The position numbers were made by a program, and so were the translations under genes. A stretch of 64,000 bases of DNA from Escherichia coli (GTDB lineage: Bacteria; Pseudomonadota; Gammaproteobacteria; Enterobacterales; Enterobacteriaceae): assembly GCF_048403405.1 (NCBI RefSeq), contig NZ_CP183129.1. One strand, 5' to 3'. Shown in pieces: positions 1-4,701 of the stretch. The notes beneath the pieces are model-generated. The model saw only the letters and a list, made by a program, of their open reading frames with translations. It had not been told where the DNA came from and made no database searches. The stretch's first letter is position 1. Every line of letters starts with the position of its first letter.

Positions 1-375
1 TGTAGCAATAAACATCCTCGTATTACCGATACCAGTAACTATGAACAAATTATCGCCGAAGAATTCACCTTGTTGATATCTAAATCAGCAGGGATTGACG
101 AAATTCAAATGGACATAGATGAACGTTTTATGAACCGTAAAGTTTCATTTCGCAGTTCTTCTTTGTTGACGATAATTAATAGTATTTCTGTTACTGACTT
201 ATTGGGCATTGTGCCCACCGAACTGTACGATTTACATCGTGATTTTTTGAAGTTACAAGAGATAAAACTGGAACGACCACTTCCTGCGGTTAAACTTTAT
301 ATTTCCTATAACAAGGCTTCGTTGAACAACCTTGTCTTCTCACGATTCATAGATCGTTTAAATGATAGCTTCTGA
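1..375 (+). CDS. ybdO: LysR-family transcriptional regulator, C-terminal part (5' end lies outside the window)
   Basis: Frame 1 is open from base 1 to the stop at 375; position next to ybdN matches K-12 gene order. Identity rests on synteny and a LysR-like C-terminal region only. Confidence 0.5.
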   Translation, partial: CSNKHPRITDTSNYEQIIAEEFTLLISKSAGIDEIQMDIDERFMNRKVSFRSSSLLTIINSISVTDLLGIVPTELYDLHRDFLKLQEIKLERPLPAVKLYISYNKASLNNLVFSRFIDRLNDSF

Positions 376-521
376 TTTATTACCACTGATAAATGTTATA
401 TTACGCATCAATTGATTCATTGTGTGAATATAAAATAATGTGCTCTATCTTGCTTCGTTTACCCTATAATTAGCGGATTCATCTCACGAGTCACCCCGTA
501 ACGTTCAGAGAGCGTTTTCAG

Positions 522-1742
522 ATGTCTATTTATAAAATCCCGCTTCCACTGAATATTCTGGAAGCTGCAAAAGAACGTATTACCTGGACACTTAACACCC
601 TACCCCGCGTCTGCGTTTCTTTTTCGGGTGGTAAAGATTCCGGATTAATGCTGCATCTGACCGCCGAACTTGCCCGACAAATGGGCAAAAAAATTTGTGT
701 TTTATTTATCGACTGGGAAGCTCAGTTCTCTTGCACCATTAACTATATTCAGTCCCTGCGCGAGTTGTACACCGATGTCATCGAAGAGTTTTACTGGGTT
801 GCGCTCCCGCTTACAACGCAAAATTCCCTATCACAATACCAACCCGAATGGCAGTGCTGGGAACCTGATGTCGAATGGGTACGTCAGCCCCCGCAAGATG
901 CGATAACCGATCCTGACTTTTTCTCCTTTTACCAGCCTGGCATGACCTTCGAACAATTTGTGCGTGAGTTTGCCGAATGGTTTTCGCAAAAACGTCCGGC
1001 GGCGATGATGATCGGCATCCGTGCGGATGAGTCCTACAACCGTTTTGTCGCCATCGCCAGTTTAAATAAACAACGTTTTGCCGATGATAAGCCCTGGACT
1101 ACTGCCGCACCAGGCGGTCATAGCTGGTACATTTACCCCATCTACGACTGGAAAGTCGCTGATATCTGGACCTGGTATGCAAATCATCAAAGTCTCTGCA
1201 ACCCACTGTATAACCTAATGTATCAGGCAGGCGTTCCTCTGCGTCATATGCGAATTTGCGAACCTTTTGGTCCGGAACAACGGCAAGGATTATGGCTCTA
1301 TCACGTTATCGAACCGGATCGCTGGGCTGCTATGTGCGCACGAGTCAGCGGGGTAAAAAGTGGCGGCATTTACGCCGGACATGACAACCATTTTTATGGT
1401 CATCGGAAAATCCTCAAGCCCGAACATTTAGACTGGCAGGAGTATGCATTATTGCTACTCAACAGCATGCCGGAGAAAACAGCTGAGCATTATCGCAATA
1501 AAATCGCCATTTATTTGCACTGGTATCAGAAAAAAGGCATCGAGGTTCCACAAACCCAGCAAGGGGACATTGGCGCGAAAGATATCCCCTCCTGGCGGCG
1601 AATATGCAAAGTTTTACTCAATAACGATTACTGGTGTCGGGCATTATCATTTAGCCCGACCAAAGCGAAGAACTATCAGCGTTATAACGAACGAATAAAA
1701 GGAAAACGTCAGGAATGGGGGATACTATGCAACAACGATTAA
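522..1742 (+). CDS. ybdN: PAPS reductase-like / PP-loop ATP pyrophosphatase family protein
   Basis: 406-aa ORF with PP-loop motif SFSGGKDS near the N-terminus; synteny with ybdM and ybdL. Confidence 0.85.
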   Translation: MSIYKIPLPLNILEAAKERITWTLNTLPRVCVSFSGGKDSGLMLHLTAELARQMGKKICVLFIDWEAQFSCTINYIQSLRELYTDVIEEFYWVALPLTTQNSLSQYQPEWQCWEPDVEWVRQPPQDAITDPDFFSFYQPGMTFEQFVREFAEWFSQKRPAAMMIGIRADESYNRFVAIASLNKQRFADDKPWTTAAPGGHSWYIYPIYDWKVADIWTWYANHQSLCNPLYNLMYQAGVPLRHMRICEPFGPEQRQGLWLYHVIEPDRWAAMCARVSGVKSGGIYAGHDNHFYGHRKILKPEHLDWQEYALLLLNSMPEKTAEHYRNKIAIYLHWYQKKGIEVPQTQQGDIGAKDIPSWRRICKVLLNNDYWCRALSFSPTKAKNYQRYNERIKGKRQEWGILCNND

Positions 1743-2344
1743 CGCAGGATTTAACCCAATTTCTCGCCAGCTTGCCGGAAGACGATCGCATCAAAGCGAT
1801 TAATGAAATCCGCATGGCGATCCATCAGGTTAGCCCCTTTCGAGAAGAGCCAGTGGATTGCGTTCTGTGGGTTAAAAACAGCCAACTTATGCCTAATGAT
1901 TACAACCCAAACAACGTGGCACCACCCGAAAAAAAACTGCTGAAAAAATCCATTGAAATAGATGGTTTTACCCAACCCATTGTGGTCACGCATACGGATA
2001 AAAATGCCCTGGAAATCGTGGATGGTTTTCACCGCCATGAAATTGGTAAAGGCTCATCATCGTTAAAATTACGCTTAAAAGGTTATTTGCCGGTGACCTG
2101 TCTGGAAGGTACGCGTAATCAACGCATCGCCGCGACTATTCGTCATAACCGCGCTCGTGGACGTCACCAAATCACTGCCATGTCAGAAATCGTCCGTGAA
2201 CTCAGCCAGTTGGGATGGGACGATAATAAAATTGGCAAAGAGCTGGGAATGGACAGCGACGAAGTGCTACGCCTGAAGCAAATTAACGGCCTGCAAGAGT
2301 TGTTTGCCGACCGTCAATATTCCCGCGCCTGGACGGTTAAATAG
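1715..2344 (+). CDS. ybdM: ParB/Spo0J-like nuclease-domain protein
   Basis: 209-aa ORF overlapping ybdN by 28 bp; length and position match K-12 YbdM. Confidence 0.8.
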   Translation: MGDTMQQRLTQDLTQFLASLPEDDRIKAINEIRMAIHQVSPFREEPVDCVLWVKNSQLMPNDYNPNNVAPPEKKLLKKSIEIDGFTQPIVVTHTDKNALEIVDGFHRHEIGKGSSSLKLRLKGYLPVTCLEGTRNQRIAATIRHNRARGRHQITAMSEIVRELSQLGWDDNKIGKELGMDSDEVLRLKQINGLQELFADRQYSRAWTVK

Positions 2345-3505
2345 CTAAAGCTGGCGCAGGCGTTCAGCTGCTGCCAGCAACGTCGATTCCTTCTTGGCAA
2401 AACAGAGACGAATCAGTTTATGTGGGAAGGGATCGGCGCAAAACACCGATAGCGGAATCGCCGCTACGCCGTGCTCCTGCGTCAGCCACTGGCAAAACTC
2501 AACGTCATCCAGGGTAGATACGGCGCTGTAATCCACCAGCAAAAAGTATGTACCTTCGCACGGTAAAATCTCCAGCCGGCTTTCATTTAAGGCATTCACC
2601 AGAATATCGCGCTTCTGGCGATAAAAGTCCGGTAACGCAAGATAATGCTCAGGTTCTGCACGTAGCATATCGGCAAGCGCCAGCTGTGCCGGGGTATTCA
2701 CCGAAAAGGTCAGATACTGATGTACCTTGCGAATTTCGGCACTGATGGGCGCTGGCGCAACGCAATAACCCACTTTCCAGCCGGTCATATGATAGGTCTT
2801 GCCAAACGATGACACCGCCACCGCCCGCTCACGCAGCTGCGGATGCGCCTGCACGCTGGCATGGCCCTGTTGTGAAAAGTTGATGTGCTCGTAAACTTCA
2901 TCGCTAATGACAAAAATCTCGTGCCCGGCAATTGCCTGCCACAAAGCGGCGAAATCAGCCTGCTGCCAGACAGTTGCACTGGGGTTATGCGGGGTGTTGA
3001 GGATCACCAGTCGGGTGCGCTCGCTTAACAATGCGGCAAATTCCTGCCAGTCCACGCGAAAATGCGGTGGTTGCAGTGCAATACGTTTCACTATTCCCCC
3101 CGAAAGCGCGATGGCGGGCGCGTAACTGTCATAGCTGGGATCAAAGCAGATCACTTCATCACCATTGCGCACCAATGCGGTAATCGCTGCATATAACGCT
3201 TCCGTCGCCCCTGCCGTTACGGTGATATCACTATCGGCATCCGGTTGATAGCCATACAGACGTTCCGTTTTCTGAGCAATCGCCTCGCGCAAGGCCTGCA
3301 CGCCAGTCATAGGCGCGTATTGGTTTGCCCCCTGGTCAACATGGTACGCCAGCCGCTCCTGCAAATAGCGCGGACCATCAAAATCAGGAAAGCCTTGCGA
3401 AAGGTTAATCGCCTGGTGTTGCTGCGCCAGCGCGCTCATCTGGGTGAAAATAGTGGTGCCAAGTTGTGGAAGTTTGCTTTGTGGAATCAGAGGGTTATTT
3501 GTCAT
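2345..3505 (-). CDS. ybdL: PLP-dependent methionine aminotransferase
   Basis: 386-aa ORF with class I aminotransferase features; synteny. Confidence 0.9.
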   Translation of the reverse strand: MTNNPLIPQSKLPQLGTTIFTQMSALAQQHQAINLSQGFPDFDGPRYLQERLAYHVDQGANQYAPMTGVQALREAIAQKTERLYGYQPDADSDITVTAGATEALYAAITALVRNGDEVICFDPSYDSYAPAIALSGGIVKRIALQPPHFRVDWQEFAALLSERTRLVILNTPHNPSATVWQQADFAALWQAIAGHEIFVISDEVYEHINFSQQGHASVQAHPQLRERAVAVSSFGKTYHMTGWKVGYCVAPAPISAEIRKVHQYLTFSVNTPAQLALADMLRAEPEHYLALPDFYRQKRDILVNALNESRLEILPCEGTYFLLVDYSAVSTLDDVEFCQWLTQEHGVAAIPLSVFCADPFPHKLIRLCFAKKESTLLAAAERLRQL

Positions 3506-3612
3506 TTTTTATTGTGCCTGACGAAGTTGTGTTGAAGGCACTATAACACGATGCTAGCATTTGGCAATCAAGACGTTTAGATGTCTAAATAAAACAATAA
3601 GGACAACACAAC

Positions 3613-4701
3613 ATGCCTCACAATCCTATCCGCGTGGTCGTCGGCCCGGCTAACTACTTTTCACATCCCGGCAGTCTCAATCACCTGCACGATTTTTTCA
3701 CTGATGAACAACTTTCTCGCGCGGTGTGGATCTACGGCGAACGCGCCATTGCTGCGGCGCAAACAAAACTTCCGCCAGCGTTTGAACTGCCAGGGGCAAA
3801 GCATATTTTGTTTCGCGGCCATTGCAGCGAAAGCGATGTACAACAACTGGCGGCTGAGTCCGGTGACGATCGCAGCGTGGTGATTGGCGTCGGCGGCGGC
3901 GCACTGCTCGACACCGCGAAAGCCCTCGCCCGCCGTCTCGGTCTGCCGTTTGTTGCCGTTCCGACGATCGCCGCCACCTGCGCCGCCTGGACACCGCTCT
4001 CCGTCTGGTATAACGATGCCGGACAGGCGCTGCATTATGAGATTTTCGACGACGCCAATTTTATGGTGCTGGTGGAGCCAGAGATTATCCTCAATGCGCC
4101 GCAAGAATATCTGCTGGCGGGGATCGGTGACACGCTGGCGAAATGGTATGAAGCGGTGGTGCTGGCCCCGCAACCAGAAACGTTGCCGCTAACCGTGCGA
4201 CTGGGGATCAATAATGCGCAGGCCATTCGCGACGTCTTGTTAAACAGTAGCGAACAGGCGCTTGCCGATCAGCAAAATCACCAGTTAACGCAATCATTTT
4301 GCGATGTGGTGGATGCGATTATCGCCGGAGGTGGAATGGTCGGTGGTCTGGGCGATCGTTTTACGCGTGTGGCGGCGGCCCATGCCGTGCATAACGGTCT
4401 GACCGTTTTGCCGCAAACCGAGAAGTTTCTCCACGGCACCAAAGTCGCCTACGGAATTCTGGTGCAAAGCGCCTTGCTGGGTCAGGATGATGTGCTGGCG
4501 CAATTAACTGGAGCGTATCAGCGTTTTCATCTGCCGACTACGCTGGCGGAGCTGGAAGTGGATATCAATAATCAGGCGGAGATCGACAAAGTGATTGCCC
4601 ACACCTTGCGTCCGGTGGAATCCATTCATTACCTGCCGGTCACGCTGACACCGGATACGTTGCGTGCAGCGTTCGAAAAAGTGGAATCGTTTAAAGCCTG
4701 A
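3613..4701 (+). CDS. ybdH: iron-containing alcohol / hydroxycarboxylate dehydrogenase (glycerol dehydrogenase-like)
   Basis: 362-aa ORF with GVGGGALLDTAK nucleotide-binding motif; synteny. Confidence 0.85.
   Translation: MPHNPIRVVVGPANYFSHPGSLNHLHDFFTDEQLSRAVWIYGERAIAAAQTKLPPAFELPGAKHILFRGHCSESDVQQLAAESGDDRSVVIGVGGGALLDTAKALARRLGLPFVAVPTIAATCAAWTPLSVWYNDAGQALHYEIFDDANFMVLVEPEIILNAPQEYLLAGIGDTLAKWYEAVVLAPQPETLPLTVRLGINNAQAIRDVLLNSSEQALADQQNHQLTQSFCDVVDAIIAGGGMVGGLGDRFTRVAAAHAVHNGLTVLPQTEKFLHGTKVAYGILVQSALLGQDDVLAQLTGAYQRFHLPTTLAELEVDINNQAEIDKVIAHTLRPVESIHYLPVTLTPDTLRAAFEKVESFKA

Follow-up and report, generated by a model that had tools for sequence, protein, structure and literature searches.

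The ybdN-ybdM locus of Escherichia coli

We analyzed the ybdN-ybdM gene pair, which occupies positions 522 to 2344 of a 64,000-nucleotide stretch of an Escherichia coli genome (RefSeq assembly GCF_048403405.1, contig NZ_CP183129.1; the whole stretch is referred to here as the window). An initial reading of the DNA letters alone (the sequence-only reading) had named the pair and had described a PP-loop gene, with the motif SFSGGKDS, that overlaps a ParB/Srx-like gene by 28 bp. The RefSeq gene names agree with that identification, the open reading frames (ORFs) and their overlap were confirmed, and the proposed domains were recovered by a Pfam PAPS_reduct match in YbdN and by profile matches of YbdM to Noc, ParB, and Spo0J. 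The principal features are as follows.

522 to 1742, plus strand: ybdN, encoding a 406-amino-acid (aa) Cys-less (no conserved cysteine) PP-loop ATP pyrophosphatase of the PAPS-reductase/CysD/FMN-adenylyltransferase subfamily with a C-terminal DUF3440 helical domain.
1715 to 2344, plus strand: ybdM, encoding a 209-aa IbrB-like protein with an N-terminal helical extension, a ParB-CTPase/Srx-fold domain, and a C-terminal helix-turn-helix (HTH).
1715 to 1742, plus strand: overlap of the ybdN 3′ end and the ybdM 5′ end (translational coupling), 28 nt in different frames, with an alternative ybdM start at 1727.

RefSeq labels the ybdN product "phosphoadenosine phosphosulfate reductase" and the ybdM product "IbrB-like domain-containing protein." Both are real genes and not chance ORFs, because they belong to deep families of homologues, have low ratios of nonsynonymous to synonymous substitution rates (dN/dS), and recur in the same ybdN-to-ybdM arrangement. 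Strong purifying selection acts on both; in comparison with a divergent Escherichia genome, dN/dS was 0.040 for ybdN and 0.031 for ybdM, with a dS of ~0.7. The pair is present in 5420 of 5426 complete E. coli genomes at a median copy number of 1, which bears out its earlier description as conserved core genome. The whole stretch is at least 99% identical in only 288 genomes, and megablast aligned only window positions 457 to 2344 (query bases 78 to 1965) to K-12-type E. coli, at ~95.6% identity. As a general-knowledge impression, the locus seems more divergent than expected for E. coli core genes.

Two ATG codons could serve as the start of ybdM. The second, at 1727, is the annotated start of Citrobacter orthologues (205 aa); its use in ybdM would leave an overlap of 16 nt. 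The first ATG and the N-terminal residues MGD are kept in enterobacterial orthologues that lack the second Met, and they are also kept in seven accessory paralogues (described below) with a strong AAGGAGGA Shine-Dalgarno sequence; the junction of these paralogues, again with a strong Shine-Dalgarno sequence, is AAGGAGGAAGGAATGGGGGAT. Because of this conservation in orthologues and paralogues alike, the start at 1715, and with it the 28-nt overlap, appears to be the better call.

YbdN is a PP-loop protein without a conserved cysteine

Two regions of YbdN are relevant to its assignment.

618 to 641, plus strand: PP-loop motif SFSGGKDS, the ATP pyrophosphate-binding loop (residues 33 to 40, read from the sequence).
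1230 to 1739, plus strand: DUF3440 region (residues ~237 to 406).

Pfam matches to PAPS_reduct (5.4e-15, residues 30 to 234) and DUF3440 (2.9e-32) were both above gathering scores, phrog_2302 covered full-length YbdN (1.2e-76), and the best viral match was a full-length COG3969 phage protein. The family is modest in size, with 1685 clusters at an E value of ≤1e-3 and 219 at ≤1e-30 in an exhaustive profile search. Residue conservation was judged on 53 diverse full-length homologues. Within the PP-loop, G37, K38, and S40 were invariant and S35, G36, and D39 were at least 94% conserved; D64, E66, G165, R167, E170, S171, and R174 and the block P206-D209-W210-D214-W216 were also invariant or nearly so. 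The same was true of family-specific Trp and Arg residues (W110, W113, W119, R121, W268, R274, and W305), and a Trp-rich insertion specific to the family spans residues ~95 to 140. No cysteine column was conserved among the 53 homologues: position C246 was Cys in 27 and Ala in 17, and position C362 was Cys in 31 and Ala in 18. Residue 226 (window 1195 to 1197) is Cys in E. coli and Citrobacter werkmanii and Tyr in 49 of the 53 homologues. It lies within an otherwise conserved Y-N-x-x-Y-D-L-M-Y block; at this residue, other enterobacterial copies carry Tyr, Gly, or Met.

The closest solved structures to YbdN were FAD synthase, CysD, and CysH, each aligned over ~160 to 200 residues. All NCBIfam CysH, CysD, and DndC models gave 18 to 35 bits on YbdN against cutoffs of 154 to 413: the CysH models TIGR02057 and NF002537 scored 35.4 (cutoff, 254.2) and 35.2 (cutoff, 154) bits, respectively, the CysD model NF003587 scored 24.6 (cutoff, 195), and the DndC model TIGR03183 scored 22.3 (cutoff, 290.4). 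PADLOC returned weak matches to DndC (1.8e-5, over a partial stretch) and BrxP (1.3e-4). No CysN-type GTPase was found among the window ORFs or among neighbors in related loci. A true PAPS reductase, CysD, or DndC was rejected as the identity of YbdN on these scores and on the missing conserved Cys.

Because it has no conserved cysteine, YbdN is unlikely to be a PAPS reductase or a DndC-type protein. We conclude from its sequence that it is most probably an ATP pyrophosphatase of the adenylyl-transfer type, rather than a thiol-dependent reductase or an iron-sulfur (Fe-S) sulfur-insertion enzyme. For the same reason, the RefSeq product name is almost certainly wrong for the YbdN family, and we conclude that it labels a domain and not a function. 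Such a name affects studies that count these phage genes as sulfur "auxiliary metabolic genes."

These data bear on whether the pair could serve sulfur or cofactor metabolism, with YbdN as a PAPS reductase, ATP sulfurylase, or FAD-synthase-type enzyme, YbdM as a sulfiredoxin- or serine-kinase-like protein, and a small phospho-adenylyl metabolite as the product. The RefSeq name, the structural matches to FAD synthase, CysD, and CysH, and weak profile matches of YbdM to SbnI and a free serine kinase would fit such a role, and cys genes rise in a ybdO mutant (PMC9068703). Against it stand the NCBIfam scores, which miss the CysH and CysD equivalog cutoffs; the absence of the C-terminal catalytic Cys of CysH (ECGLH-type) and of any other conserved Cys; and the absence of a CysN-like GTPase partner of the kind that CysD has. 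YbdN further differs from CysD, FMN adenylyltransferase, and CysH in its Trp-rich insertion and ~170-residue DUF3440 domain, YbdM retains an HTH, the partner genes described below encode SNF2 helicases and phage replication proteins, and E. coli already has cysH, cysD, cysN, and cysC. We consider a role in sulfur or cofactor metabolism very improbable.

YbdM has a ParB-like fold followed by a predicted helix-turn-helix

Four motifs were located in YbdM.

1895 to 1912, plus strand: NDYNPN motif (residues 61 to 66), aligned with ParB box I (PNRFQPR in Noc) in the alignment to Noc 7ol9.
2021 to 2035, plus strand: DGFHR motif (residues 103 to 107), aligned with ParB box II GERR, which holds the phosphate-binding arginine.
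2141 to 2167, plus strand: RHNRARGRH motif (residues 143 to 151), a family signature.
2231 to 2281, plus strand: predicted HTH, IGKELGMDSDEVLRLKQ, from conservation and HTH-like profile matches.

As a single sequence, YbdM scored 24.6 bits against Pfam ParB_N, below the cutoff of 26.3, and 15.8 bits against TIGR00180 (cutoff, 58.45). A profile of 72 homologues, which were also used to judge motif conservation, matched Noc (1.4e-6), ParB (2.7e-5), and Spo0J in the PDB and, weakly, the ParB-fold kinases SbnI and SerK (the free serine kinase). The three Asn residues and the Pro of NDYNPN were invariant (family form, NxYNPN), as were D, G, and R of DGFHR, which aligned to "GErRwR" of Noc and ParB, and R, N, R, A, G, and H of RHNRARGRH (family form, RHNRARGxH). 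In the predicted HTH (family form, GMDxDExLRLKQ), G, E, and Q were invariant and M, D, L, R, L, and K were at least 90% conserved; a single-sequence AlphaFold2 model placed helices at this site, but with low confidence (predicted local distance difference test score of 45.8). An N-terminal helical extension of ~40 residues is present in YbdM of the enterobacterial clade and in some other members. The protein is strongly conserved across phyla (E values of ~1e-40 to 1e-60 between E. coli and Firmicutes or Bacteroidetes), and phrog_2159 matched it with an E value of 3.9e-69.

Residues 52 to 175 of YbdM matched phage ParB-DNA-methyltransferase fusions (phrog_498, 1e-10; PADLOC MTase_II), so related ParB-fold domains occur fused to DNA methyltransferases. 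Fusions of this type, known from phages and plasmids, and the DpdB-DpdA pair (DpdB is described in PMC12839542) resemble YbdNM in that a YbdM-like ParB fold is fused to or paired with a DNA-modifying enzyme; they differ in that YbdN is a separate, translationally coupled PP-loop protein and not an S-adenosylmethionine-dependent methyltransferase or a transglycosylase. More generally, the ParB-CTPase fold frequently occurs in fusions, with methyltransferases and acetyltransferases among the attached domains, and can bind CTP, ATP, or GTP with a specificity that is unpredictable from sequence or AlphaFold3; the 2025 survey reporting this leaves the YbdM family unmentioned (PMC12704722). The term "nuclease domain," applied to YbdM in the sequence-only reading, is a historical label for the ParB N-terminal fold and no more; nothing found indicates nuclease activity.

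In common with VirB, KorB, Noc, and ParB, YbdM has the ParB N-terminal fold, the box II arginine, and an HTH. It differs from them in having NPN and not QPR in box I, in its own RHNRARGxH motif, and in its obligatory coupling to an enzyme. It also ends ~20 residues past the HTH and is thus without the ParB-type C-terminal dimerization domain, and no ParA gene was found in the window or in related loci. Compared with a canonical ParB/Noc clamp, the fold and the arginine are therefore present and the dimerization domain and ParA are absent (parS was not searched for).

The two-gene overlap and the ParB naming might suggest a toxin-antitoxin (TA) or DNA partition cassette in which YbdM would be the antitoxin or partition protein and YbdN the toxin, and the Listeria homologues lmo1309 and lmo1310 have been flagged as a core "TA-like" pair through guilt by association (PMC7020466). 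This explanation has to contend with the missing ParA partner and dimerization domain and with a putative toxin that is a 406-aa enzyme with an intact active site under strong purifying selection. Moreover, deletion of ybdO raises ybdN above ybdM (log2 of +5.5 versus +2.5), and the mutant could still be cultured for transcriptome and growth assays (PMC9068703). A TA or partition function is extremely improbable.

The pair is an obligate unit in bacteria and phages

We surveyed linkage in one genome per species, for a total of 80 loci; those without a ParB-like gene were truncated contigs. The taxa included Enterobacteriaceae, Verrucomicrobia (Akkermansia, Opitutales), Bacteroidetes, Firmicutes (Lachnospiraceae, Clostridium, Listeria), Alphaproteobacteria, Helicobacter, and a Heimdallarchaeota metagenome-assembled genome (MAG). 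The enzyme gene preceded the ParB-like gene, adjacent and on the same strand, in 78 of the 79 genomic loci with both genes, mostly with gaps of −28 to +17 nt. Pairwise protein distances for YbdN and YbdM were correlated (r = 0.60 over 41 loci), a value reached in none of 2000 permutations. YbdN and YbdM thus form an obligate unit.

Viral genomes gave a similar picture. Among 80 IMG/VR contigs, 78 had the enzyme gene, and a ParB-like gene lay beside it in 71 of these, downstream in 44 and upstream in 27. Some viral variants carried a second ParB-like paralogue; others had an elongated ParB-like protein (~390 aa) with an extra C-terminal domain. Such long variants (~390 to 416 aa) were seen upstream of the enzyme gene in ~15 viral contigs and in one Cellvibrionaceae genome (loci L110, 4163 to 5413; L115, 6769 to 7980; L167, 6811 to 7989; L020, 5848 to 7035). 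Their C-terminal domain, of ~170 aa with conserved Cys and His residues (…HTYDKWECHKAGFY…SCEHYLTN…NRIAWLGQA…), had no match in Pfam, NCBIfam, or the PDB.

Two further partners recurred outside the Escherichia/Citrobacter clade. The first is an SNF2-family helicase of ~415 aa (SNF2-rel_dom plus Helicase_C, with a GTGKT Walker A motif and a DES(L/H) motif II in the sequences read). In 17 genomic loci, its gene runs up to or into the 5′ end of the enzyme gene, and in a further locus it is ~445 nt upstream. These 18 loci include those of Listeria, Opitutales, Clostridium, Alphaproteobacteria, and Lactobacillus phage AQ113; the helicase gene was also adjacent in 18 viral loci. The Listeria protein (L051, 6664 to 7992) weakly matches NCBIfam NF053675, "pilus expression-regulating Snf2 family helicase" (39.7 bits; cutoff, 1100), and a pilus-regulating SNF2 model echoes the fimbrial contexts of the enterobacterial paralogues described below. 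The second partner, a ~140-aa protein without a Pfam match, adjoins the enzyme gene in 14 Bacteroidetes loci and in some phages. A profile of this partner matched phage proteins (6.9e-14 and 1.6e-10), and Pfam clearly assigns one of them to the GNAT acetyltransferases; on profile similarity, this identifies the Bacteroidetes partner as a probable divergent GNAT protein. The Escherichia/Citrobacter clade has neither partner and carries ybdO instead.

The pairing had been said to recur in phages and islands, and it does: 224 phage records carry it, in addition to the viral contigs above and the plasmid and island copies below. Its viral neighbors (helicase, primase/VapE, PDDEXK, YqaJ, AAA_24, and C5-cytosine methylase) make up a replication/recombination module. 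In Lactobacillus and Streptococcus phages, the pair immediately follows the lysis genes and is not part of the structural module. In Arthrobacter phage Laroye (L003, 226 to 6670), the ParB-like gp2, gp5, and gp7 surround a PAPS-reductase-like gp6; after them come genes for a methyltransferase and for the small and large terminases.

For chromosomal contexts, we examined the two nearest genes on each side at 68 loci outside the E. coli clade (247 proteins). These neighbors gave 145 + 143 Pfam families, none found in more than four proteins, and were mostly housekeeping. PADLOC (E value of ≤1e-10) detected among them only isolated systems, namely, one Cas9/Cas1 locus, one Hhe, one type IIG restriction-modification enzyme, and a few others. 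No conserved dndA, dndD, dndE, cysteine desulfurase, or nuclease partner was found among the 247 neighbors, and no candidate ligand-pathway genes were linked. Association with defense islands as a general rule was rejected on the PADLOC and Pfam results. The association with mobile or defense contexts raised in the sequence-only reading therefore stands in its first part, for phage, plasmid, and island copies, and fails in its second, since the 68 chromosomal homologues show no defense-island signature. In an uncultured Tenericutes MAG (L024, 954 to 9339), an SNF2-enzyme-ParB trio is followed within ~600 nt by genes for 1341-aa and 291-aa proteins; judged by protein size, these are probably the Cas9 and Cas1 detected by PADLOC, the sole CRISPR adjacency seen.

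The motif of DndB, DGQHR, is of the DG-x-H-R type, and the Dnd and type 4 BREX systems (DndB/DndC and BrxP) share with YbdNM a ParB-fold protein paired with a PAPS-reductase-like PP-loop ATP pyrophosphatase that acts, or in YbdNM would act, on DNA. The pair could accordingly mark self and non-self DNA, as a Dnd- or BREX-type-4-like module in cells and for anti-restriction in phages and plasmids, with any effects on transcription being secondary. In addition to the domain pair and the weak DndC and BrxP matches, the abundance of phage and plasmid copies (224 phage records and 728 plasmids), the SNF2 and C5-methylase neighbors, and the position after the lysis genes in Lactobacillus and Streptococcus phages speak for such marking. 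However, YbdN has no conserved Cys for an Fe-S cluster or persulfide, its hidden Markov model scores are an order of magnitude below the DndC and BrxP family cutoffs (22 bits versus 290 for DndC), and DUF3440 takes the place of the DndC C-terminal region. DndA, DndD, DndE, desulfurase, and nuclease genes are not conserved near the homologues, and defense genes occur at few of the 247 neighbor positions; against PADLOC-DB v2, YbdNM itself gave only the weak DndC, BrxP, and MTase_II matches. The E. coli copy, moreover, is core, silent, and single, unlike variable defense islands. We regard DNA marking of this kind as quite unlikely.

Sampled accessory IbrAB-like copies lie beside virulence loci in enterobacteria

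The first gene of the pair encodes PAPS_reduct plus DUF3440, and an IbrB-like ParB-fold/HTH gene follows immediately and overlaps it; ybdN-ybdM is thus the core-genome member of the known IbrA/IbrB family and an already annotated pair. What is added here is the very likely incorrect product name, the obligate and widespread unit, the SNF2 and GNAT partners, the lack of a general defense context, and paralogues at virulence loci. IbrA/IbrB of strain ECOR-9 and the accessory pairs share with ybdNM the two-gene architecture, the gene order, and the overlapping junction (GGAATGGGGGAT start context). They differ in being mobile and present in multiple places, whereas ybdNM is a single-copy core pair with its own LysR repressor. 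According to papers citing Sandt 2002, IbrAB of E. coli ECOR-9 is reportedly a co-activator of prophage eib genes. A need for both genes to activate silent targets (the eib phenotype) is known, from such citations, for the ECOR-9 pair only.

E. coli genomes hold ~2,650 extra chromosomal or plasmid places for the pair, up to five per genome. It was found on 728 plasmid records, including 323 from Klebsiella, 195 from Escherichia, 129 from Ralstonia, and 34 from Salmonella; 118 accessory copies are on E. coli plasmids. Seven accessory copies, from E. coli, Klebsiella, and Salmonella, were sampled and had 57 to 59% (YbdN) and 55 to 60% (YbdM) amino acid identity to the core pair. All seven adjoin fimbrial, autotransporter, siderophore, or surface-polysaccharide/receptor loci, and four are accompanied by PapI/PapB/PerC or LysR regulators. 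Their contexts are as follows.

Plasmid of Shiga toxin-producing E. coli: Pef/Afr-type fimbriae, with a FaeA/PapI regulator upstream and PerC downstream.
Two chromosomes: Pix-type fimbriae with PapB, PapI, and DsbA, then a YaiO polysaccharide cluster.
Plasmid: S6-family autotransporter protease and PerC.
A further copy: YaiO/YaiP cluster and a TonB-dependent receptor.
Klebsiella pneumoniae plasmid pKP44 (IncFIB/IncHI1B; L169, 8989 to 10850): directly upstream of iroBCDN and next to fecI/fecA.
Salmonella IncF plasmid: Saf/Afa fimbrial operon, then a LysR regulator.

Contexts of this kind agree with the citations in which IbrAB activates acquired adhesin genes. We found no study in the literature on a role of an IbrAB-like pair in iro expression.

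The operon is AT-rich upstream and repressed by YbdO

Two features upstream of ybdN bear on its control.

70 to 375, plus strand: 3′ end of ybdO (citR), a LysR-type regulator gene (weak LysR_substrate match, 1.4e-3).
376 to 521, plus strand: ybdO-ybdN intergenic region, AT-rich, a candidate control region (promoter scan and G+C content).

All Escherichia/Citrobacter-clade loci have a gene of the same ~300-aa cluster (c8) at the ybdO position. In a systems-level study of LysR regulators, chromatin immunoprecipitation with exonuclease treatment located a YbdO (CitR) peak upstream of citR-ybdNM, and YbdO was shown to repress ybdNM; transcriptome sequencing (RNA-Seq) of the ybdO deletion strain gave log2 increases of 5.5 for ybdN and 2.5 for ybdM, ybdO itself is regulated by H-NS, and the function of ybdNM was not stated (PMC9068703). 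The region upstream of ybdN has a G+C content of 35 to 38%, compared with 50 to 60% in the flanks, and the composition of window positions 1 to 800 is consistent with an old, horizontally acquired block of the H-NS target type. By gene, the G+C content is 35 to 42% in the ybdO 3′ end and spacer, 43 to 46% in ybdM, and 52 to 60% in the flanking ybdL and ybdH.

The sequence-only reading had called the pair uncharacterized. That holds insofar as full-text literature searches returned no functional study of ybdN, ybdM, DUF3440, or the SNF2/PAPS-reductase/ParB trio; it is slightly too strong in that repression by YbdO is known (PMC9068703) and the IbrAB paralogue is cited as an eib co-activator. 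We found no paper in the literature proposing nucleic acid modification for a YbdN-YbdM-type pair, a proposal mentioned in the sequence-only reading.

One way to account for the regulatory context is a pure transcription factor pair, in which YbdM alone would be a VirB-like nucleoside triphosphate (NTP)-gated anti-silencer or repressor and YbdN would make, consume, or sense a small ligand controlling it. The ParB fold and HTH of YbdM, the VirB precedent (PMC10770331), the accessory copies beside regulators and virulence operons, and a UniProt-based prediction that YbdM is a transcription factor (quoted in PMC9068703) all agree with this, as do the small-molecule substrates (flavin mononucleotide [FMN] and sulfate) of the proteins nearest to YbdN in structure. 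It leaves the recurrent SNF2 translocase and the phage replication-module context unexplained, however; the many invariant Trp and Arg residues in the insertion and DUF3440 of YbdN would be unusual for a simple small-molecule enzyme, and candidate ligand-pathway genes are not linked to the pair. We judge a pure transcription factor pair unlikely, if less so than DNA marking.

A nucleotide-driven, DNA-targeted module as the tentative explanation

We tentatively favor, as possible rather than probable, the explanation that YbdN and YbdM make up a two-protein module, driven by nucleotide and targeted to DNA, through which silenced acquired genes are activated. Its elements of a complex, DNA as the target, adenylation chemistry, and counter-silencing are those that we infer. 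YbdM would be the DNA-targeting subunit, gated by an NTP of unpredictable identity. Because YbdN has no catalytic cysteine and no Fe-S ligands, we would expect it to carry out adenylyl transfer or adenylate activation and not sulfur reduction or insertion. Translational coupling would lead to production of the two proteins in a fixed proportion, and they probably act as a complex. The target of YbdN would most likely be DNA or a DNA-bound component at sites chosen by YbdM; candidates for adenylation are a DNA base, the DNA backbone, YbdM, and a small ligand. DNA is proposed as the place of action because of the obligate coupling, the ParB fold and HTH, the SNF2 partners, and the homology to ParB-methyltransferase fusions.

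In enterobacteria, the readout would be activation (counter-silencing) of AT-rich, horizontally acquired genes, and in K-12-type cells the ybdNM operon would be kept off by YbdO. This regulatory outcome is suggested because paralogues lie beside virulence operons and regulators, because IbrAB is cited as a co-activator, and because the ybdO-ybdNM region is AT-rich and repressed by YbdO. VirB, a ParB-like, CTP-dependent anti-silencer, counters H-NS silencing of acquired virulence genes (PMC10770331) and would, by analogy, be a mechanistic precedent for counter-silencing by a ParB-fold protein.

Several points weigh against this explanation. YbdM is without the dimerization domain that makes ParB and VirB clamps, the DUF3440 half of YbdN has no PDB counterpart and so offers no structural clue, and no YbdN-YbdM fusion protein was found among 150 cluster representatives. 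The SNF2 and GNAT partners are absent from the E. coli clade, and conclusions drawn from them may not transfer to it; likewise, the Cys at residue 226 may point to a relaxed or altered YbdN activity in that clade. The virulence-locus context is a correlation in seven sampled loci and not a census, the evidence on IbrAB comes from citations and not from the original paper, and no published experiment on YbdN or YbdM was found in the literature. One metagenomic representative (P0247, 281 aa) joins a YbdM-like ParB domain (residues 21 to 113, E value of 1.2e-35) to a DUF3440-like region (residues 114 to 275) and represents a rare fusion or, alternatively, an artifact of assembly or of a frameshift.

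A more specific possibility, which we consider unlikely, is that IbrAB/YbdNM installs a previously undescribed covalent mark on a DNA base or the backbone, in an ATP-dependent and sulfur-independent manner, at sites chosen by the ParB-CTPase fold, with SNF2 or GNAT proteins assisting elsewhere. If so, the family would constitute a new epigenetic system, carried by the E. coli core genome, by phages, and by Klebsiella hypervirulence plasmids, with silenced virulence and fitness loci under its control. If the pair is, more broadly, a nucleotide-driven DNA switch or modifier, it would be a second kind of ParB-fold gene activator besides VirB and could expose a new enzyme-catalyzed step through which horizontally acquired genes are controlled. 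In the E. coli core genome, ybdNM is among the operons that still lack a known function. Its relatives are widespread in gut Bacteroidetes, Firmicutes, Akkermansia, Listeria, and many phages, and on virulence plasmids of E. coli, Salmonella, and Klebsiella its paralogues are immediate neighbors of fimbrial, autotransporter, and salmochelin loci.

Spacer elements and the convergent ybdL gene

The remaining features lie in the ybdO-ybdN spacer and at the 3′ end of ybdM.

412 to 439, plus strand: sigma-70-like site TTGATT-16-AATAAT, the single site in the spacer by promoter scan.
415 to 429, plus strand: small inverted repeat ATTCA-N5-TGAAT in the spacer.
2342 to 2347, no strand: abutting stop codons of ybdM (TAG, plus strand) and ybdL (CTA, which is TAG on the minus strand), with zero intergenic bases.

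Site counts in the promoter and terminator scans were not above the shuffled expectation. No LysR T-N11-A palindrome with at least 11 of 13 self-complementary positions was found in the spacer, only the 5+5 inverted repeat, and an Rfam scan of window positions 1 to 4000 found no RNA family. Upstream regions do not align across genera, and the spacer is poorly alignable with that of Citrobacter; window positions 380 to 456 were also left unaligned to K-12-type E. coli by megablast, so this promoter-proximal spacer varies among E. coli lineages.

Downstream, the aminotransferase gene ybdL (2345 to 3505, minus strand) converges on ybdM. The scan detected no intrinsic terminator after ybdM and no terminator-like site between the convergent stop codons. 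A listing based on RNA-Seq data from strain MG1655 includes ybdL-ybdM among convergent excludons, whose transcripts overlap (PMC12288877). Because of the abutting stop codons and this listing, expression of the aminotransferase gene and that of ybdNM may interfere with each other.

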